The notes under the pieces are model-generated. The model ran no database searches. It saw nothing but the letters and a program-made list of their open reading frames with translations, and was not told the DNA's origin. A DNA stretch of 64,000 bases from a virus, in the IMG/VR virus record IMGVR_UViG_3300046787_000200, positions 213,090-277,089 of that record, one strand, 5' to 3'. How positions within the stretch are numbered: the first letter of the stretch is position 1; each line of letters starts with the position of its first letter. Below are positions 2,490 through 11,791 of this stretch, one piece after another. The translations under genes were made by a program, and so were the position numbers.

Positions 2490-3661
2490 GCAAAAGAGTA
2501 GCAGTAATCGGTGCAGGCATTACCGGCATCACAACAGCATATTACCTTGCTAAACAAGGTTATCAAGTACACGTGTACGAACAAGAGCCTTACCCCGCAA
2601 TGCGTACTAGCTTTGCTAACGGGGGTCAGGTCTCTGTAAGTAACAGCGAAGTATGGACTACATGGAGTAACGTCAAGAAGGGCATCAAGTGGCTCTTTAA
2701 GAAAGATGCTCCACTACTCATTCGCCCTCGTTTAGATTTCAAACAATGGAAGTGGATCGCAAAGTTCTTATACAATACTGCCACCAATCAGTATGAAAAG
2801 AACACTAGCGAAACAATTAAAATGGGCCTAGAATCTAGTAAGTTGTACAAAGAGATTATTTACACAGAGAAACTATCGTTCGACCAATCACCTAGTGGCA
2901 TCTTGCACTTCTACAAAGACGACCAATACTTTGAAGCCGCTAAACAAGCACAAACTATCTATCGTAGTAATGGTTGCGAGTGGGATATTGTTAGTACACA
3001 AAAAGTTAAAGAACTAGAAAGTAAACTAGAATCTGTTAAAGGTATTGTAGGTGGTGCTTGGACATTAAGTGATTGGACCGGAGACATTCACAAGTTTTGT
3101 ATTGAACTAGAGAAAGTATTAAAGAAGAAATACGGTGTAGCCTTCATTTACAATACAACAGTTACCAAAGAGTATATGCAACAGCTAGTTAATTTGTATG
3201 ATAGTGTTGTTGTGTCAGCGGGTGTAGGTAGCGTTGAAATTGCTAAGTATGTCGGTGATAACCTTGATATATATCCAGTCAAGGGTTATAGTATCACTAT
3301 TAACAACGTAGATAAGAAACACTTACCTATCGTTAGTCTATTAGATGACCAGGCAAAGATTGTTACATCAACATTGGGCAACAAGTTCCGTGTTGCAGGT
3401 ACTGCTGAACTTGCAGGTGAGAACTACGATATCAGACACGATAGAGTTAAACCACTATTAGATTGGGTAAGAACTAACTTCCCGAATATCAATACGCATG
3501 ATTACAGTAGTTGGGCTTGCTTGCGACCAATGACTCCTAATATGATGCCTATTACCAAATGTAGTGACAAGAATAGTAAAGTGTACTATAATACAGGACA
3601 CGGTCACTTAGGCTGGACATTAGCACCATACACAGCAAAACTTATTTCGGAACAAATATGA
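2486..3661 (+). CDS. FAD-dependent oxidoreductase (D-amino-acid oxidase / ThiO-like)
   Basis: N-terminal Rossmann motif VAVIGAGITGITTAYYL. C-terminal GHGHLGW block. ATGA overlaps with both neighbours. Confidence 0.7.
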   Translation: MSKRVAVIGAGITGITTAYYLAKQGYQVHVYEQEPYPAMRTSFANGGQVSVSNSEVWTTWSNVKKGIKWLFKKDAPLLIRPRLDFKQWKWIAKFLYNTATNQYEKNTSETIKMGLESSKLYKEIIYTEKLSFDQSPSGILHFYKDDQYFEAAKQAQTIYRSNGCEWDIVSTQKVKELESKLESVKGIVGGAWTLSDWTGDIHKFCIELEKVLKKKYGVAFIYNTTVTKEYMQQLVNLYDSVVVSAGVGSVEIAKYVGDNLDIYPVKGYSITINNVDKKHLPIVSLLDDQAKIVTSTLGNKFRVAGTAELAGENYDIRHDRVKPLLDWVRTNFPNINTHDYSSWACLRPMTPNMMPITKCSDKNSKVYYNTGHGHLGWTLAPYTAKLISEQI

Positions 3662-4506
3662 GTCATTTAAAAGTATCAGAGTTATTTTACAGCATTCAAG
3701 GTGAGGGTAGATACATGGGTGTTCCCTCCGTGTTCTTACGAACATATGGATGTAATTTTACATGCGGTGGATTCGGCATGTCTAAGGGAGAAGTTAGTAG
3801 TGAGAGAGATGTTATTGCGATTAAAGCAGAAGATTATACAGATTATAAATCCCTACCGCTTGTCAGTACGGGATGTGATAGTTACGCAAGTTGGGACCCT
3901 AGGTTTAAACATCTTAGTCCTGTGCTCACTACCGATGCTATTGCTAGTAGCATTATGGATATACTTCCTCATGGGCGTTGGATGGATGAGCATCTTGTTA
4001 TTACAGGTGGTGAACCTCTTCTCGGTTGGCAAAGAGCGTATCCAGAATTACTTTCGCATGAAAAAATGAAGGCATTGAAAGAGATTACATTTGAAACTAA
4101 CGGCACACAAGAACTGAGTCAAGACCTTAAAGTATATCTACAACAATGGAAGATCAACAGAGAAAAGAATGCATTAACATTTAGTGTAAGCCCTAAATTA
4201 AGCATTAGCGGTGAGAAGTGGGAAGAAGCAATTCGTCCTGAGATTATTCATCAATATGAAAGTATAGGCTTTGTATATTTGAAGTTTGTTATTGCTACGA
4301 GTGAGGATGCACTTGAAGCAGATAAGGCAGTTAAAGAATATCGTCACAGAGGATTTAGAGGGCCAGTATACTTTATGCCATGCGGTGGTGTAGAATCACT
4401 TTACAATCTAAATGCTAAGAATGTAGCTATTGAAGCAATGAATCGAGGATATAGATACAGTGATAGATTGCAAGTGCCGTTGTTTAAAAATGAATGGGGA
4501 ACATAA
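3658..4506 (+). CDS. queE: 7-carboxy-7-deazaguanine synthase-like radical SAM protein (QueE)
   Basis: N-terminal ELFYSIQGEG matches the QueE signature. Cysteine motif is GCNFTCGGFG, i.e. non-canonical spacing. Confidence 0.7.
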   Translation: MSHLKVSELFYSIQGEGRYMGVPSVFLRTYGCNFTCGGFGMSKGEVSSERDVIAIKAEDYTDYKSLPLVSTGCDSYASWDPRFKHLSPVLTTDAIASSIMDILPHGRWMDEHLVITGGEPLLGWQRAYPELLSHEKMKALKEITFETNGTQELSQDLKVYLQQWKINREKNALTFSVSPKLSISGEKWEEAIRPEIIHQYESIGFVYLKFVIATSEDALEADKAVKEYRHRGFRGPVYFMPCGGVESLYNLNAKNVAIEAMNRGYRYSDRLQVPLFKNEWGT

Positions 4507-4688
4507 TGAAAGAAATAGTAATAACAAGAAATCAATTTGAGAAATTAAAAGAAGTTTTTGAAATGTACGACCTTGATAGAGTTGTTTGGAAAGAAAATTC
4601 ATCTAGTGGCATCGGTCCCACAGTTACAATTGAATTTGATCCAAAGAGCACAATGAAGATGGACATCACCGATGTTGATAGTTGGTAA
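4494..4688 (+). CDS. hypothetical protein
   Basis: 64 aa ORF overlapping the queE stop; in the operon orientation. Confidence 0.4.
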   Translation: MGNIMKEIVITRNQFEKLKEVFEMYDLDRVVWKENSSSGIGPTVTIEFDPKSTMKMDITDVDSW

Positions 4689-4705
4689 TAATATAAAGGA
4701 AATTA

Positions 4706-5806
4706 ATGAGTTATTTATTTACAAGTGAGAGCGTATCGGAGGGACACCCTGATAAAATTGCAGATGCAATTAGTGATAAAGTATTAGATTTAGTAATGAC
4801 ACATGAGGATCGAGCATTACGTTGTGCATGTGAAACATTGGTTACTACTAATCGTGTTATTGTTGCAGGTGAGTATAAAGGAGTATTGCACAACGAAGCC
4901 GTAGAAAATGCTGTACGTGATGTTATTAAAGATGTAGGTTATGAACAATTAGGTTTTGATTGGCGTACAGTAGAGATTACTAATCTATTGCACGGACAAA
5001 GTGCTGATATTGCGTTAGGTACAGATACGTTTGGTGCAGGTGATCAAGGATTAATGTTTGGCTATGCATGCAATGAAACAGATGTACATATGCCCTCAGC
5101 TATCTATTGGGCGCATCGTATTGTAGAAGAACTAACACAGATTCGTAAGTCAGGGTCAGTTGAATGGTTAGGTCCAGATGCTAAAAGTCAAGTAACATTT
5201 GAATATAACGATGACAATACACCTAAGCGTATTAGTAAAGTAGTGTGTTCAACGCAACACAGTGAAGGTATTGATATCAATTCAGTTAGAATGGGTGTTG
5301 AGAATATCATTCGAGGAATACTACCGGAACAATATTTAGACAATGAAACTGAATTCTTTATTAACCCAACTGGTCGATTTGTTATCGGTGGTCCTGATGG
5401 TGACACTGGGCTTACTGGCCGTAAGATTATCGTTGATACTTATGGTGGGTATAGCCCTCATGGTGGCGGAGCCTTCAGTGGCAAAGATCCTACTAAAGTG
5501 GATAGGTCTGCTGCCTACATGATGCGATATATTGCTAAAAATATTGTAGCAAGCGGACAAGCAAACTGGGCTACTTGTCAGATTAGTTATGCTATTGGTA
5601 TGGCACAACCTATGAGTTTCTACATTGAAACTGCACATACTGAACAAAGTCGCACACTAACAAAATGGGTACAAGACAATGTTGATTTGACACCTAACGG
5701 TATCATTGATCGTTTTGATTTGTTTAGACCGATCTATAGTAGCACAACTAACTATGGTCACTTTGGTAAGCCAGACTTGCCTTGGGAAAAAGTAGATTTG
5801 TTCTAA
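4706..5806 (+). CDS. metK: S-adenosylmethionine synthetase
   Basis: 366 aa. SESVSEGHPDKIADAISD N-terminus and MetK-wide conservation. Confidence 0.9.
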   Translation: MSYLFTSESVSEGHPDKIADAISDKVLDLVMTHEDRALRCACETLVTTNRVIVAGEYKGVLHNEAVENAVRDVIKDVGYEQLGFDWRTVEITNLLHGQSADIALGTDTFGAGDQGLMFGYACNETDVHMPSAIYWAHRIVEELTQIRKSGSVEWLGPDAKSQVTFEYNDDNTPKRISKVVCSTQHSEGIDINSVRMGVENIIRGILPEQYLDNETEFFINPTGRFVIGGPDGDTGLTGRKIIVDTYGGYSPHGGGAFSGKDPTKVDRSAAYMMRYIAKNIVASGQANWATCQISYAIGMAQPMSFYIETAHTEQSRTLTKWVQDNVDLTPNGIIDRFDLFRPIYSSTTNYGHFGKPDLPWEKVDLF

Positions 5807-6222: not shown

Positions 6223-7550
6223 GAACATACGATAAACGCATTGGATTTTTAGTAAGCTATCAAACACTAATACCGCATGGTGGTATTGGACAATTTACAA
6301 AAAGTTTTTGTGAGTTGATGGATAGTCATAACATTAAAGTAGATATCATTACTGATAAGTTACCCCAAGACAATGAGTTTATTAAATCTATTCCGACTAA
6401 TATTATAGCACCAGCAGAATCATTACGATATACTGAGCATAGTAATATTTTTATGTATGGTGATACTTTCTGTTATGAACGTATGGCTAACTTCCGTAAT
6501 AGTATTATTAAAGCATTGAGTAGTAATTTATATGATGCATTAGTTTGCAATACATACGAGACTGTTCAAGTGGCTAGCACTATGGGTCTTGATGATTGCA
6601 TTCAAATCATCGCATATACTCATTTAGAAAGTCAAATCTTTAAAGATACAAAGAACCCTTTCTTATACAATACAAATGCAATGATGCGACAGCAATTAGA
6701 TACACCGGGAGTATATGTAGGGACTCAAAGTAAATTTAATCAATTGAATATCAGTGATACTGCGTATCATCTTCCTATCCCTATTACAGAGAAATCATTA
6801 TTAGAAGAATATCACGGACCACGTGAAGGTGTATTATTCGTTGGTCGTTGGGAAGAAGGCAAGAACCCTGAATTGTTTATTGACTTAATTGAACAGACTG
6901 GGTTGCCTGCTAAGGTTATGACTAGTCCTAATGGTGTAAAGAAGTTTGAAGATAGACTAGCAAAAATTGGTGCTGTGTTTGATGTTCGTTCTAGTATCAT
7001 TGGTCAAGAGAAAGTTGATTTCATCAAGTCAAGTCGTATTGCATTTAATCCTAGTGTAGTCGAAAGTTATGGCATGGCATTCTATGAACAACACATTCAA
7101 TTGCCTACGTTAGTATTAGAGAGCCAACGATGGACTAAAAACTTCAATGAAGATTTCTTTTACAAATGCACAAAGAAAGACATGGCTAAGAGTGCACAAG
7201 AGTTATATGATAGTTTTGAGAAACCAGAAACTTGGTATAACTTAGGATCATTGGATCATGCTAAACAGCAAGAAGATAGTGTATTTCACAAGTGGAATAG
7301 TTGCTTCCGTGAATTTCAGCCTAAGTTATCTAACAGTAATACAGCTAAAATTTGTAATGAAACAACTATTACACATTCTGACTTCATTGAAAATCTAGGT
7401 CGTAGTGTAATTTGTATTGATGATGTTCGTAGCGTGTTGACCAACAAACATAAGTTTAGAGTTATCTATACAGACAATGACACTTATTTAACTAAAGATC
7501 CAGTCTTTGAACCAGCAGAAGAAACTAGTGAGGAATTATTTCAGTGGTAA
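6219..7550 (+). CDS. glycosyltransferase, GT-B / GT4-like
   Basis: 443 aa. LFVGRWEEGKN ... VESYGMAFYEQ resembles the GT4 E-x7-E donor-binding region. Confidence 0.5.
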   Translation: MRTYDKRIGFLVSYQTLIPHGGIGQFTKSFCELMDSHNIKVDIITDKLPQDNEFIKSIPTNIIAPAESLRYTEHSNIFMYGDTFCYERMANFRNSIIKALSSNLYDALVCNTYETVQVASTMGLDDCIQIIAYTHLESQIFKDTKNPFLYNTNAMMRQQLDTPGVYVGTQSKFNQLNISDTAYHLPIPITEKSLLEEYHGPREGVLFVGRWEEGKNPELFIDLIEQTGLPAKVMTSPNGVKKFEDRLAKIGAVFDVRSSIIGQEKVDFIKSSRIAFNPSVVESYGMAFYEQHIQLPTLVLESQRWTKNFNEDFFYKCTKKDMAKSAQELYDSFEKPETWYNLGSLDHAKQQEDSVFHKWNSCFREFQPKLSNSNTAKICNETTITHSDFIENLGRSVICIDDVRSVLTNKHKFRVIYTDNDTYLTKDPVFEPAEETSEELFQW

Positions 7551-8377
7551 AAAAAGTTTTAATTACAGGTAACAGTGGTTACATAGGTTCACATCTTACT
7601 AAGATGTTAAAGAATGATTATGAAGTTTATGGATTAGATAAAGTAGAGCCACAAGAGTCACCTCATACATTCTATCATTGTGATATCAATCGTCAGTTTA
7701 GTTTAGAAGATGAGTTTGATTGTGTGATTCATTTAGCCGCATTGGTTAATGTAGGTGAAAGCGAAATCAAACCTATTCCATATTACATTACTAATTTGAA
7801 TGGCACAATGAATGTGTTGAATAAAATTAAAACAAAGAACTTTATCTTTGCAAGCACAGGAGCCGCACAAGATTGTTGTAGTGCATACGGAATTAGTAAA
7901 CGTGCGGCAGAAGATGTAGTTAGAGAATATTGTATCACCCATCGTCCAACACCATATACAATCTTTAGATTTTATAATGTTATTGGAAGCGAAGGCTTTG
8001 CTCCCACTAACCCCGATGGATTGATGTATAATCTAATTATGGCTATGCAATCAAAACAGTTTACTATATTCGGTAATGATTATGATGTATCACCTGATGG
8101 CACTTGTATTAGAGATTATGTTCATGTAAATGAAATATGTGATGCATTAAAACAAGCTATTGAGAAACCTAGTAATAGTGTAGAATGTTTGGGTCACGGA
8201 GTAGGATATACTGTAAAAGAGATTGTTGATGAGTTTCAAAAAGTCAATAATATCAACTTCAACGTGAAATACGGTTCAAGAAGAAAGGGTGATGTGGCCA
8301 GTAGTGTATTAGAAGATGTATCTCCTTATATGCGTAATTTGTATACAATAGACGAGTTGCTAAAGGTTGACAAATAA
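7544..8377 (+). CDS. NAD-dependent epimerase/dehydratase (SDR family)
   Basis: VLITGNSGYIGSHL Rossmann motif and a YGISK (YxxxK) catalytic motif. Confidence 0.7.
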   Translation: MVKKVLITGNSGYIGSHLTKMLKNDYEVYGLDKVEPQESPHTFYHCDINRQFSLEDEFDCVIHLAALVNVGESEIKPIPYYITNLNGTMNVLNKIKTKNFIFASTGAAQDCCSAYGISKRAAEDVVREYCITHRPTPYTIFRFYNVIGSEGFAPTNPDGLMYNLIMAMQSKQFTIFGNDYDVSPDGTCIRDYVHVNEICDALKQAIEKPSNSVECLGHGVGYTVKEIVDEFQKVNNINFNVKYGSRRKGDVASSVLEDVSPYMRNLYTIDELLKVDK

Positions 8378-8591
8378 TACATTTGGGTATATAATAGAGT
8401 CTTATTCAGTTGATTTACAGGGTAACAAAATGTCAGAAAAAGTAGAGCTTTATTGCACCCAAAATGACGAAGGTCAATGGCTTGTTTGGTTCCCTCATCC
8501 CTTAGGCGGTATGAATGTCTTGGAAACATTCGACAATGAAACCGACGCTAGGGCTTTTCACCAAGATCAAATTGATAGTGCTGAAATTTGA
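8367..8591 (+). CDS. hypothetical protein
   Basis: 74 aa. Its stop codon TGA lies inside the -35 of the downstream promoter. Confidence 0.4.
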   Translation: MTNNTFGYIIESYSVDLQGNKMSEKVELYCTQNDEGQWLVWFPHPLGGMNVLETFDNETDARAFHQDQIDSAEI

Positions 8592-8616
8592 CAATAAATG
8601 GCAATTGTGCTATAAT
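8588..8616 (+). promoter_or_regulatory. consensus sigma70-type phage early promoter TTGACAATAAAT-N-TATAAT
   Basis: TTGACA at 8588-8593, TATAAT at 8611-8616, 17-nt spacer. Confidence 0.55.
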
Positions 8617-8650
8617 ACTTGTATTGAGTTAATTAAAGGAATATAGATAT

Positions 8651-9322
8651 ATGGTTACGCAAACTAAATCGTTCAAATTGCCTAAAAATTTTCCACCAGT
8701 GGACAATGGTAGTGTATACAAAGAAATTACAAAAGTCATTAAAAACAATGAATTTGTATTTGATTTGGATAACCAAATATCAATGTTGGCATTACAAAAA
8801 ATGTTACCAGAGTATCCTTTTACTAAGGTTGCTGATTGTGTTTTGAATGTAGCTGAAAACTTTTTAGGTAAAAGTCTCTCTAGAAGAAAATATATTGATA
8901 GTATGTCATTTCAAGGTAATCTAGTTGATTATATTCCGGTAGCTGATATCAAAGCTTTGTGGGACGCTAGTCCTAAAGAATGGGTATACACTATTGTATA
9001 CAATGGTAAAATTGTTAAAATTGGCATGACTAGTTCGGGATTATCATCTAGGTATACTTCATATAAATCCGGAACTACCTTAGCAATGATTAAGGGTAGT
9101 TGTGCTACAACTAATTTTGTAGTTACACAATGCAATTATCTCGCATTATTGAAGAATATTAAGGTTGAAATTTTTGCATATGAAATTCCTCAGTTGATTA
9201 CTGAGCAGATTATTTTTGGCAAAAAAGAAAAAGTGCTAAATAAAGTAGCACATCAATTTGAATCTACCTTAATCAATATATACAAAGATTCAAAAGGATA
9301 TATTCCACCTTTGTGCGGATAA
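8651..9322 (+). CDS. hypothetical protein with a possible degenerate GIY-YIG nuclease motif
   Basis: VYTIVYNGKIVKIGMTSSGLSSRYTSY resembles GIY..YIG..R. Weak call. Confidence 0.3.
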   Translation: MVTQTKSFKLPKNFPPVDNGSVYKEITKVIKNNEFVFDLDNQISMLALQKMLPEYPFTKVADCVLNVAENFLGKSLSRRKYIDSMSFQGNLVDYIPVADIKALWDASPKEWVYTIVYNGKIVKIGMTSSGLSSRYTSYKSGTTLAMIKGSCATTNFVVTQCNYLALLKNIKVEIFAYEIPQLITEQIIFGKKEKVLNKVAHQFESTLINIYKDSKGYIPPLCG

Positions 9323-9335
9323 TTATAAAAACTTA

Positions 9336-10253
9336 ATGAAAACTAAATCTTTAATCAAAGCGCAGACTGTTGCTAAAATAAAAATAAAAAAAGAATTGGA
9401 TAAGTTTTACACACATCCAGACATTGCAAAGAAATTTGTTGATTATATAAATGCGTTAGTACCTTTATCTAACTTCGGCACAGTATTAGAACCTTCTGCC
9501 GGCTCAGGAAACATATTACAATTTCTACCGAACACTGCAATTGGAATGGACCTATACCCAGAATCAAAGAATATTATTCAACAAGATTTTTTCACATATG
9601 AACCGGAAGGGTACCCCTTTCCAGGGGTACCGATAGCGTGTGTAGGTAATCCACCATTCGGTAACGGTTATATGAATCCGTTGGCTAAAGGATTTTTTAA
9701 TCATGCGGCTAAATTCAGTGATGTAATAGCATTTATTGTTCCGGCAAAATGGCACACATCGTGGAAAGTTCATAAACAATTAGATACTAGATTTGGATTA
9801 TATTTTAGCGAAATTCTTCCTAAAAATAGTTTTTTATTAAATGATATAGCATATGATGTAAACTGTTGTATGCAAATTTGGAGTAAGAACGCATTAGGTA
9901 CCAATTTAAGAATTATTACGAAACCAAAAACATCGCATGAAGATTTTGATTTCTTTTTGACTTGTGACAATGTTCCCAGAAAAAAAGAAGTTATCCAACA
10001 ATTAACTAATAAAGAATATTGGGAATTTGGTTTGAAATACTGGGGAAAGATTGGTTTATGTGAGATCACTGACGTGCCGATAACCACTACAACTCATTAC
10101 TTGTTTAAATCTAAAAAGCCCTATGTTAGGTCTATCTTAGAGCAAATTGATTGGATGAAATATGTTTCTAATATGGGAGCCCCTAATATCGGTGGCAAGT
10201 CTATTCTTGTCAAAGCATATGAAGATAAAAAACACGAACTACAAATTAAATAA
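9336..10253 (+). CDS. DNA N6-adenine/N4-cytosine methyltransferase (amino-MTase, motif I then IV)
   Basis: LEPSAGSGNIL (motif I) and GNPPFGNGY (motif IV, NPPF). Confidence 0.7.
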   Translation: MKTKSLIKAQTVAKIKIKKELDKFYTHPDIAKKFVDYINALVPLSNFGTVLEPSAGSGNILQFLPNTAIGMDLYPESKNIIQQDFFTYEPEGYPFPGVPIACVGNPPFGNGYMNPLAKGFFNHAAKFSDVIAFIVPAKWHTSWKVHKQLDTRFGLYFSEILPKNSFLLNDIAYDVNCCMQIWSKNALGTNLRIITKPKTSHEDFDFFLTCDNVPRKKEVIQQLTNKEYWEFGLKYWGKIGLCEITDVPITTTTHYLFKSKKPYVRSILEQIDWMKYVSNMGAPNIGGKSILVKAYEDKKHELQIK

Positions 10254-10682
10254 TTATAATTGATTACGTTTCTTAGCTAAGAACTGTTCAGCAATCATCA
10301 CCAACTCTTGCATTTGCTCAATACTCTCACAGTTCCATCTACGCAAACTCTTGTTAATGTTACTATTTGGATCTCTCGCTGTCTTGGCGCTAGTTCTGCT
10401 TTTCTTCATGCCCTTCATTCTAGCACAGAATGATTTACGGCGTTTAGCGGCTTTACTGCCCTTTTTAAGTTTGCTAGGTTTAGTAGTAACAGCAGTTTGA
10501 ATCTTGCTACCAGGATGACTACGACGGTAGCTGGCTACACTCTTTTTACTCATGCCACCAACTCGTTTGTTATTATGCTTTGACCAATTTTCGCCTTCTT
10601 CTACATGCTCACACTCACATGGATTTTTTCCACAATGTGGACACATGTTGCTTGATTCAGTTAAAATTTCACTTATTCTCAT
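10254..10682 (-). CDS. highly basic small protein with an N-terminal Cys/His cluster (possible DNA-binding or internal virion protein)
   Basis: 142 aa on the minus strand. CPHCGKNPCECEH, then a K/R-rich body. Confidence 0.5.
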   Translation of the reverse strand: MRISEILTESSNMCPHCGKNPCECEHVEEGENWSKHNNKRVGGMSKKSVASYRRSHPGSKIQTAVTTKPSKLKKGSKAAKRRKSFCARMKGMKKSRTSAKTARDPNSNINKSLRRWNCESIEQMQELVMIAEQFLAKKRNQL

Positions 10683-10700
10683 AGTATCATCCGTAAATAG

Positions 10701-10729
10701 TTGACTTTATTGCGTAAACGTGTTACAAT
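10701..10729 (+). promoter_or_regulatory. sigma70-like promoter TTGACT-N17-TACAAT
   Basis: Lies in the divergent intergenic region before the UvdE-like gene. Confidence 0.4.
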
Positions 10730-10759
10730 ATATCTTATTATTTATCACTTCTTATTCTT

Positions 10760-11791
10760 ATGCACTCATTTGACACTACTAACAAACGTATCGGTTTCGC
10801 CTGTAAATGGGCAGAAATCAATAAAAAAGGTGAGATTGTATCTGCCGAAGGTCTTAACACTGGTGGTACTACACAAGCTTGGGCAAAGCGTAATAGTCGT
10901 AGTGTAGTAGAAGAAAAGATTATGGATGTTGCTAAACGTAACATTATGAATACTCACGCATTGGTTAAGAAAGTTGCTACACTTGAACCCGAACTACGAA
11001 TGTTGCGTCTTACTAGTGATATGCTCAGTTTCTATACTATGGATGAATACAAAGACTTTTGGCATTCAACTGATGTTCAGAATTCGCTTGAACGTTGGAT
11101 GGCTCCTATCGGTGAAACTGCTCGGGCTAATGACGTTCGCTTGTCATTTCATCCTGACCAATTTGTAGTTTTAGCAAGTGACCGTGAAGAAGTAGTAAAT
11201 AAGAGTATAGATGAATTTGAATATCACGTTGACATGGCTAGATTTATGGGTTATGGTCAGAAGTTTCAGGATATCAAAATCAATGTTCACATTTCTGGTC
11301 GTAAAGGTCCTCAGGGCATCAGGGATGTGTATGGTAGACTTAGCCCTGAGGCACGAAACACACTAACACTAGAGAATGAGGAATACACACATGGACTTAC
11401 TGACTGCTTATCATTATCTGACCTCGTACCTACGGTCATGGACATACATCATCACTGGATTCGTGAGGGAGAATACATCGATTGTAATGACGTACTTGTT
11501 AAAAGGGTTATTGACAGTTGGCGTGGCGTACGCCCTACTTTACATTATTCTGTCAGTAGGGAAGATTGTCTTGTTGAACACTCCCGAAATGAACGTCCCT
11601 CCCATAATGCGTTGATTGAGGCAGGATACAGTAAACAGAAGCTTAGGGCACACAGTGATTACTATTGGAATGATGCAGTGAACGATTGGGCATTGACATT
11701 TATTGATAGTTTTGATATGATGTGTGAAAGCAAAGCTAAGAACTTAGCTAGCTTTAAATTACTAGAGAGATACAAATGTTTGAAAAATTAA
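10760..11791 (+). CDS. uvsE: UV DNA damage endonuclease (UvdE/UvsE family)
   Basis: RLSFHPDQFVVLAS ... INVHISGRKG ... TLENEE ... DIHHH ... RAHSDYY align with UvsE catalytic blocks. Confidence 0.75.
   Translation: MHSFDTTNKRIGFACKWAEINKKGEIVSAEGLNTGGTTQAWAKRNSRSVVEEKIMDVAKRNIMNTHALVKKVATLEPELRMLRLTSDMLSFYTMDEYKDFWHSTDVQNSLERWMAPIGETARANDVRLSFHPDQFVVLASDREEVVNKSIDEFEYHVDMARFMGYGQKFQDIKINVHISGRKGPQGIRDVYGRLSPEARNTLTLENEEYTHGLTDCLSLSDLVPTVMDIHHHWIREGEYIDCNDVLVKRVIDSWRGVRPTLHYSVSREDCLVEHSRNERPSHNALIEAGYSKQKLRAHSDYYWNDAVNDWALTFIDSFDMMCESKAKNLASFKLLERYKCLKN

Follow-up and report, generated by a model that had tools for sequence, protein, structure and literature searches.

The window analysed here is a 64,000-nucleotide stretch of DNA (positions 213,090 to 277,089) from the IMG/VR virus record IMGVR_UViG_3300046787_000200, and the subject of this study is a pair of adjacent genes within it, ORF1 and ORF2, which code for a putative restriction endonuclease (R) and a putative methyltransferase (MTase; M), respectively. 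We consider it likely that these two open reading frames (ORFs) constitute a two-gene Type IIP restriction-modification (R-M) cassette of the Hpy188I family, which resides in an uncultured jumbo phage of 352 kb and probably acts on the site TCNGA. The case is built on homology, predicted folds, catalytic residues, linkage of the two genes across viral genomes, purifying selection, a consensus promoter sequence and depletion of the predicted site. An earlier note, made from the sequence alone, had listed three ORFs at this locus, all of which are present exactly at the coordinates it gave, and had proposed, among other options, a compact R-M-like unit. That proposal is now backed by the homology and catalytic residues of ORF1, the class of ORF2 and the co-inheritance of the two genes across viruses.

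ORF1 is a predicted GIY-YIG nuclease of the Hpy188I family

ORF1 (8651-9322, + strand) encodes a protein of 223 amino acids (aa), in which an N-terminal region (residues ~1-105) is followed by a GIY-YIG core (residues 106-223). Its similarity to a GIY-YIG nuclease is far above chance: Hpy188I (PDB 3oqg) is the sole solved structure reached from the ORF1 sequence (phmmer, E=2e-6), and a profile of 27 ORF1 homologues matches the same entry with E=1.1e-13 over chain residues 63-179, the alignment reaching the C terminus of Hpy188I. The PADLOC Type II restriction endonuclease model REase_II PDLC03493 also recognises ORF1 (E=8e-9), and PHROGs gives a weak match to an 'endonuclease' family. Pfam yielded a sub-threshold T5orf172 hit alone (E=0.065), its GIY-YIG model finding no match in ORF1, and NCBIfam offered nothing useful for ORF1, ORF2 or the third reading frame, ORF3.

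The AlphaFold (AF2) model of ORF1, with a predicted local distance difference test score (pLDDT) of 92.8, leads to the same enzyme. In a Foldseek comparison with the PDB, the top three matches are Hpy188I chains (best E=2.6e-8; probability 1.00; TMt 0.59-0.61), with T4 endonuclease II (EndoII) ranking second and UvrC GIY-YIG domains following. The root-mean-square deviation between the model and Hpy188I is high, as is expected when a monomer model is set against a domain-swapped dimer. The modelled fold is consistent with a GIY-YIG core bearing the additions specific to Hpy188I, namely, an N-terminal hairpin, a C-terminal hairpin and a glutamate helix.

The active site of Hpy188I consists of Y63, K73, R84, Y88 and E149 (PMC3045582), which align with Y113, K123, R134, Y138 and E204 of ORF1. 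All five residues are invariant across 28 homologues drawn from three gene arrangements, and the catalytic residues of ORF1 are thus intact in the alignment. The degenerate GIY...YIG...R pattern that the earlier note had pointed out can be read as WVY(113)...KIG(123-125)...R134. In Hpy188I, Ser87 hydrogen-bonds the N6 and N7 of adenine, which is why N6-methylation blocks the enzyme (PMC3045582); the equivalent serine is invariant in the 28 homologues, including ORF1, and the GxCxTTN loop is kept in the family. At the remaining DNA-contact positions, ORF1 has Ser in place of Thr100 and Cys90, Ala in place of Ser102 and no equivalent of Gln169, while most other family members retain Cys90, Ser102 and Gln169. 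Judged from its sequence and its modelled fold, ORF1 is a genuine homologue of R.Hpy188I with intact catalytic residues.

Homing endonucleases of the I-TevI/Seg type combine an N-terminal GIY-YIG domain with a C-terminal DNA-binding domain and recognise a long asymmetric target. The data do not support ORF1 as an enzyme of this type, since its GIY-YIG core is C-terminal rather than N-terminal with a DNA-binding tail and its best-matching folds are those of restriction enzymes and EndoII. The domain architecture of ORF1 therefore does not fit the idea, also raised in the earlier note, of a homing endonuclease accompanied by an MTase.

ORF2 is a predicted gamma-class N6-adenine methyltransferase

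ORF2 (9336-10253, + strand; 305 aa) carries motif I, EPSAGSG (residues 52-58), ahead of motif IV, NPPF (residues 105-108), with the target-recognition domain at the C terminus. This is the motif order of gamma-class amino-MTases, to which the enzyme had been assigned from the sequence alone. Several PADLOC MTase_II models match it (best E=4.5e-29), and in PHROGs it falls into phrog_799, DNA methyltransferase. Foldseek comparison of the AF2 model (pLDDT 87.4) retrieved M.TaqI, aligned over both domains (~350 columns), a Type I M subunit and M.BseCI. Searches of the PDB by sequence, whether with the single sequence or with a profile, gave no matches for ORF2, so that the fold comparison alone was informative there, and no Pfam model exceeded its threshold, D12 reaching just 13 bits.

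Two comparisons place the enzyme more closely. A 298-aa MTase of Helicobacter pylori aligns with ORF2 over 280 positions at 31% identity (E=4e-32). ORF2 gives no match at E<=0.1 to the PADLOC model PDLC03273, whose length (432 positions) and association with R suggest that it would be the M.Hpy188I-type model. On the evidence of its sequence and model, ORF2 is a gamma-class N6-adenine DNA MTase outside the M.Hpy188I subfamily, and not an orphan enzyme of the Dam-like kind. A 243-aa ORF 3' of the H. pylori MTase homologue was considered as a possible counterpart of ORF1 and proved on comparison to be unrelated to it.

The phage also encodes an S-adenosylmethionine synthetase (4706-5806, + strand; phrog_1569), ~3 kb upstream of ORF2. 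The Pfam S-AdoMet_synt N, M and C domains were found on an identical gene in the related locus L110, and the enzyme could supply the methyl donor.

The nuclease and the methyltransferase are linked across viral genomes

We gathered related loci through the nuclease profile (n=30) and, separately, through close MTases (>=54% identity, n=21). A single-sequence search with ORF1 returned no relative loci; the alignment-based search succeeded. The ORF1 family is small, comprising 38 clusters in a k-mer-limited protein search, and the MTase family is large, with more than 1,100 clusters in a protein search. In 21 of the 30 loci reached through R, this MTase comes directly after R, and two more loci end too early to show what follows. 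Conversely, R is present in 16 of the 21 loci reached through close MTases; it precedes the MTase in some of them and, as a third arrangement, comes immediately after it in others, and the M-then-R order was seen in 9 further loci.

Nine of the loci are of giant-virus type. They are AT-rich, 6 of them are labelled GVMAG in IMG/VR, and one contains a 1,393-aa B-family polymerase. In 8 of these 9, R is convergent with an MTase of ~425 aa of the Eco57I/N6_Mtase type. Seven of the eight were scanned or tabulated, and all 5 partner MTases that were scanned match PDLC03273 with E values from 1e-102 to 1e-117. The nuclease thus occurs with two unrelated MTase families and in three gene orders, suggesting that its MTase partner has been swapped. 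Three giant-virus-type contigs have a second gamma MTase (396 aa) just upstream of the nuclease (L024 4299-5489, L025 4694-5875 and L026 4680-5870), and in two loci the convergent MTase bears an N-terminal C2H2 zinc-finger extension (L022 928-2400 and L025 6708-8201).

Among the R loci with sufficient flank, L030 is the sole exception in which no MTase ORF adjoins R. Distant relatives of the MTase (30-44% identity) were never found with the nuclease. Collectively, the nuclease is almost never without an MTase and the MTase is at times alone, which matches the pattern expected of R-M systems.

The predicted recognition site is depleted in nuclease-carrying genomes

Site frequencies were expressed as the ratio of observed to expected counts (O/E) under a maximal-order Markov expectation, and each site was ranked among the 16 xxNxx (or xxNNxx) palindromes. 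TCNGA is the most depleted xxNxx palindrome (rank 1) in every nuclease-carrying set, namely, in the window (O/E 0.66, z -4.5), in 26 phage contigs with the nuclease (0.75, z -6.8) and in 9 giant-virus-type contigs (0.54, z -6.2). Within the cassettes themselves the depletion is about four- to seven-fold, with O/E 0.26 for 24 phage cassettes (23 observed, 87.6 expected) and 0.15 for 7 giant-virus cassettes, both again rank 1. TCNNGA is close to expectation in the pooled R-carrying contigs (0.95 and 0.97) and in the cassettes (143 observed versus 151 expected), and the cassette of the window contains 0 TCNGA and 5 TCNNGA sites. The depletion of TCNGA alongside two unrelated MTase partners argues against an artefact of protein coding. 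The site of the system is therefore predicted to be TCNGA, probably, as for Hpy188I.

Four-base palindromes are also strongly under-represented over the window (1-64000), with O/E of 0.53 for GATC, 0.61 for CATG, 0.60 for GTAC and 0.56 for TCGA. Their scarcity fits a long history of encounters with host restriction systems.

The cassette is mobile and under purifying selection

In phage genomes, the R-M pair was found in at least 8 distinct flanking contexts. Most often it sits in T4-like phages, flanked by the clamp-loader genes gp44 and gp62 and next to gp45, regA and gp43. In a relative of 346.7 kb, the pair occupies the same island as in the window, after an epimerase gene, but has other neighbours.

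Comparison of the window with its closest relative, L114, gave dN/dS values of 0.15 for R and 0.05 for M, the two R proteins being 88% identical in aa sequence, and both genes of the window are under purifying selection. Across the aligned segments (window 7544-10253 versus L114 432-3136), dS is 0.42-0.49 for the cassette and 1.0 for the adjacent epimerase, which suggests that the cassette was exchanged more recently than the epimerase.

Scans for short conserved patterns, in which remote homologues such as Hpy188I itself would go unnoticed, yielded no close relative of either gene in the representative genomes of 185,579 bacterial and archaeal species. Megablast of positions 8000-11000 of the window against 50,697 phage records returned nothing, and neither did tblastn of ORF1 against the same records, among which no cultured phage carries the nuclease.

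The variable island that holds the cassette contains, in the window, a gene for a UvdE UV-damage endonuclease (10760-11791, + strand). The same island of the 346.7-kb relative (L001 3868-4458) instead holds Pyr_excise, a T4 endoV-like gene, together with an additional N6_N4 MTase. To judge from these annotations, UvdE and Pyr_excise would be alternative UV-repair cargo at one locus.

A consensus promoter precedes the cassette

A sigma-70-type promoter, TTGACA-17 nt-TATAAT with TG before the -10 element (extended -10), lies at 8588..8616 on the + strand and matches the consensus at 12/12 positions. It ends 35 bp 5' of the ATG of ORF1, and a Shine-Dalgarno-like AAAGGAA, read from the sequence, stands at 8635..8641 (+), ~10 nt ahead of the start codon. 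A perfect promoter is also present upstream of R in L114. The window as a whole contains 14 perfect TTGACA-N17-TATAAT promoters, all on the + strand (starting at 8367, 8588, 12605, 23073, 23343, 23666, 25926, 26747, 29374, 29640, 43367, 44281, 44587 and 60945), where 0.14 would be expected, and many of them have an extended motif in common (TTGACAATAAAT...TTTGGG or TGTGC before TATAAT). We infer that these 14 sequences probably represent the early promoter class of the phage, read by the host polymerase, and that the one at 8588-8616 probably serves the R-M transcription unit early in infection. The two genes are separated by 13 nt in the window and by 2 nt in L114, and M lacks an obvious ribosome-binding site, an arrangement compatible with coupled translation.

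Proposed mode of action and alternative explanations

If the cassette works as its homology predicts, ORF1 would act as a dimer with one metal ion, Tyr113 serving as the general base, Lys123 and Arg134 contacting the scissile phosphate and Glu204 binding the metal. ORF2 would mark the same site by N6-methyladenine (m6A) on the outer adenine of TCNGA, so that methylated phage DNA is spared. Packaged phage DNA would enter the cell already methylated, host RNA polymerase would transcribe R and M early from the promoter at 8588-8616, and R would then cut TCNGA wherever it is unmethylated, be it on the host chromosome or in the DNA of co-infecting phages devoid of the methylase, while M keeps freshly replicated phage DNA protected. 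Action of the nuclease against competitors, a possibility raised in the earlier note, is plausible in this scheme. The cassette is also mobile between viral genomes, and selfish spread is a compatible second role.

Several observations weigh against the proposed Hpy188I-like system. True orphan copies of the MTase exist, at least two in number (L042 and L045, both at 3992-4873; ~63% identity), with no nuclease alongside; these orphans may protect their carriers against competitors armed with the nuclease. Encoding R before M within a single early operon is not the usual way to establish such a system safely, yet Eco29kI also has the R-before-M order (PMC3113576). The sub-clade of the window is altered at 3 of the 5 DNA contacts of Hpy188I (Ser or Thr replaces Cys90, Ala replaces Ser102, and ORF1 stops before Gln169), so that its specificity could be relaxed or shifted and its site is less certain than that of most relatives. 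The nearest characterised enzyme to the subfamily of ORF2 would, to judge from PMC2630997 and the H. pylori relative of ORF2, be M.Hpy99XVIII, which is specific for TCNNGA (PMC3936762). As regards the site counts, TCNGA is mildly depleted also in 59 control contigs without the nuclease (O/E 0.89, rank 3), and the cassette copies are homologous, so that their counts are not independent. Finally, the window is depleted of TCNNGA to the same degree as of TCNGA (O/E 0.65, rank 1 of the 16 xxNNxx palindromes), unlike related contigs. No other ORF of at least 120 aa with the motif [DNS]PP[YFWH] was found in the window as a second MTase to account for this, and the depletion could stem from a host system or from a further R-M system encoded in some other part of the 352-kb genome.

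Some of these points are shared by an explanation that retains an R-M system and assigns it another site, either TCNNGA, as for Hpy188III and M.Hpy99XVIII, the apparent subfamily of ORF2, or a relaxed or novel one. We regard this as unlikely, though a serious contender. ORF2 lacks a match to PDLC03273 and has the 298-aa H. pylori MTase as a relative, partners of this kind have been placed with M.Hpy99ORF1012P (PMC2630997), later shown to be a TCNNGA methylase (JHP1012; PMC3936762), the window is poor in TCNNGA, and its R carries Ala for Ser102 and lacks Gln169. By contrast, the pooled R-carrying contigs and cassettes are not depleted of TCNNGA, five copies of which persist in the cassette of the window; it is TCNGA that is about four-fold depleted in cassettes, with both unrelated MTase partners, and the Ser87 equivalent and the GxCxTTN loop are conserved. 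We are more doubtful that the cassette is mainly selfish, cutting cassette-free co-infecting relatives and driving its own spread or marker exclusion in the manner of the free-standing GIY-YIG homing endonucleases of T4-like phages, with little benefit to the phage. The variety of flanking contexts, with the position between gp44 and gp62 in T4-like phages the most frequent, the lower dS of the cassette than of the flanking epimerase, the purge of TCNGA from cassettes and the swapped MTase partner would all suit such an element. Nevertheless, ORF1 is built like a Type IIP restriction enzyme and not like I-TevI/Seg, a 5-bp site would be cut many times per genome rather than at one homing site, and strong purifying selection together with an early consensus promoter fits a function in every infection. 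This explanation overlaps with the proposed R-M role and does not exclude it.

The two remaining explanations deny a working partnership. It is improbable that ORF2 is an orphan anti-restriction methylase and ORF1 a nuclease indifferent to methylation, engaged like EndoII in the breakdown of host DNA or in repair or recombination, the two being mere neighbours. The orphan MTases of L042 and L045, the second rank of T4 EndoII among the structural matches and the nearby UvdE repair gene speak for such an arrangement, but an MTase adjoins every R with enough flank except that of L030, in three gene orders and from two unrelated families, the residue equivalent to Ser87, which in Hpy188I is a steric sensor of N6-methyladenine, is invariant, and the depletion is specific to the Hpy188I site. 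Least credible, to the point of being highly improbable, is that the nuclease gene is the inactive relic of a former R-M system: ORF1 of the window does end one or two residues before most homologues and has the DNA-contact substitutions described above, but the reading frame is intact, the catalytic residues are all present, dN/dS is 0.15 and the model is confidently folded.

Beyond the single cassette, we tentatively envisage, with less than even confidence, an Hpy188I-type R-M lineage that circulates mainly or only in viruses, including T4-like marine phages, jumbo phages and giant viruses of eukaryotes. Lytic phages would use it as an early offensive weapon, its nuclease destroying the chromosome of the host and rival phages that lack methylation, with m6A at TCNGA as the mark of self, in functional replacement of the modified-base and EndoII strategy of T4, and orphan methylases in other phages would serve as counterdefense.

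Relation to known systems

Hpy188I of H. pylori (PDB 3oqg/3or3; TCN^GA, m6A) has the nuclease family and fold in common with ORF1. In both enzymes the GIY and YIG elements are replaced, by LVY in Hpy188I and WVY in ORF1 and by KIG, followed by the Arg, the Tyr and an in-trans-type Glu; the serine that reads N6/N7, the GxCxTTN loop, a C-terminal P..C motif and a linked N6-adenine gamma-class MTase are likewise shared, and the avoidance of TCNGA is consistent with the same site. The differences are also considerable. ORF1 is ~23% identical to Hpy188I and has ~50 extra N-terminal residues, the order in the window is R then M, and the MTase of the window (305 aa) belongs to another gamma subfamily than the M.Hpy188I type (~430 aa). 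In addition, the system of the window resides in a lytic-type jumbo phage, whereas Hpy188I resides in a bacterium.

R.Hpy188I was shown to be a GIY-YIG enzyme by Kaminska et al. (2008; PMC2630997), who also found 23 further family members, mostly on marine metagenome fragments. All members with enough flank adjoin an MTase, 7 of the M.Hpy188I-like type and 2 of a distinct gamma subfamily (M.EsaSS1928P/M.Hpy99ORF1012P), and R-M function and exchange of the MTase partner were inferred for the marine homologues in that study (PMC2630997). The cassette of the window is, to judge from that description, very probably one of these marine systems seen in its full context. The marine fragments were too short to reveal their carriers, which here turn out to be T4-like phages, the 352-kb phage and metagenome-assembled genomes of giant viruses.

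Complete prokaryote-type pairs with an m6A MTase are likewise known from chloroviruses and marseilleviruses (CviAI/M.CviAI; melbournevirus mel_015/mel_016), for which host-DNA degradation or exclusion of rival viruses has been proposed and the restriction endonuclease is transcribed early (PMC7253447). Those systems differ in having GATC and other sites, non-GIY-YIG nucleases and eukaryotic hosts, and no TCNGA system was reported among them (PMC7253447). In the literature covered by our searches for TCNGA, and for Hpy188I in connection with phages, neither phages nor giant viruses were described as carrying such a system.

T4 endonuclease II (DenA, PDB 2wsh), the second-best structural match of ORF1, shares the GIY-YIG fold at 15-16% identity. 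It attacks host DNA while hydroxymethylcytosine protects the DNA of the phage, has no partner MTase and shows a degenerate site preference with no defined palindrome. Eco29kI, whose site is CCGCGG, belongs to another GIY-YIG branch, has a cytosine MTase as partner and is plasmid-borne in bacteria; it is compared here by description. Its likeness to the cassette lies in a GIY-YIG restriction endonuclease encoded upstream of M by closely spaced genes (PMC3113576).

The enzyme family, virus-borne R-M systems and marine Hpy188I homologues flanked by MTases were already known, and the conceptual advance is modest. What is added is the viral carriers, the three gene arrangements, the purge of TCNGA at the level of the cassette, the purifying selection and the putative early promoter. 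Complete R-M systems are unusual in lytic phages, and the cassette would allow a phage to tell its own DNA from that of the host in a simple way, by m6A at one 5-bp site. A further point is that members of a single nuclease family have two unrelated methylases as partners. If active, ORF1 would be a new isoschizomer or near-variant of Hpy188I.

The adjacent DUF6321 gene

ORF3 (10254-10682, - strand; 142 aa) follows ORF2, with the stop codons of the two genes abutting. The earlier note had called it convergent in its title, which is correct, and divergent in its text, which is not; its description of the product as a very basic protein with CPHC...CEC holds, the motif lying at residues 14-24. 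Residues 40-116 match Pfam DUF6321 (PF19846) with 44.9 bits (gathering cut-off 28.5; E=1.9e-11). The gene adjoins the R-M pair in the same phage or very close relatives only (L110, L111 and L114) and is not beside it in L001, L002 and other loci. A role as controller or partner protein was rejected, since ORF3 is missing from the cassette outside the closest relatives, and the unit does not extend to this zinc-finger protein: ORF3 is a bystander and not an R-M component. In L114, the DUF6321 protein is longer than in the window (186 aa, 3137-3697, versus 142 aa), the extra length being a Cys/Lys/Pro-rich insertion after the N-terminal CxxC, and the C-terminal 100 residues of the two proteins are nearly identical.

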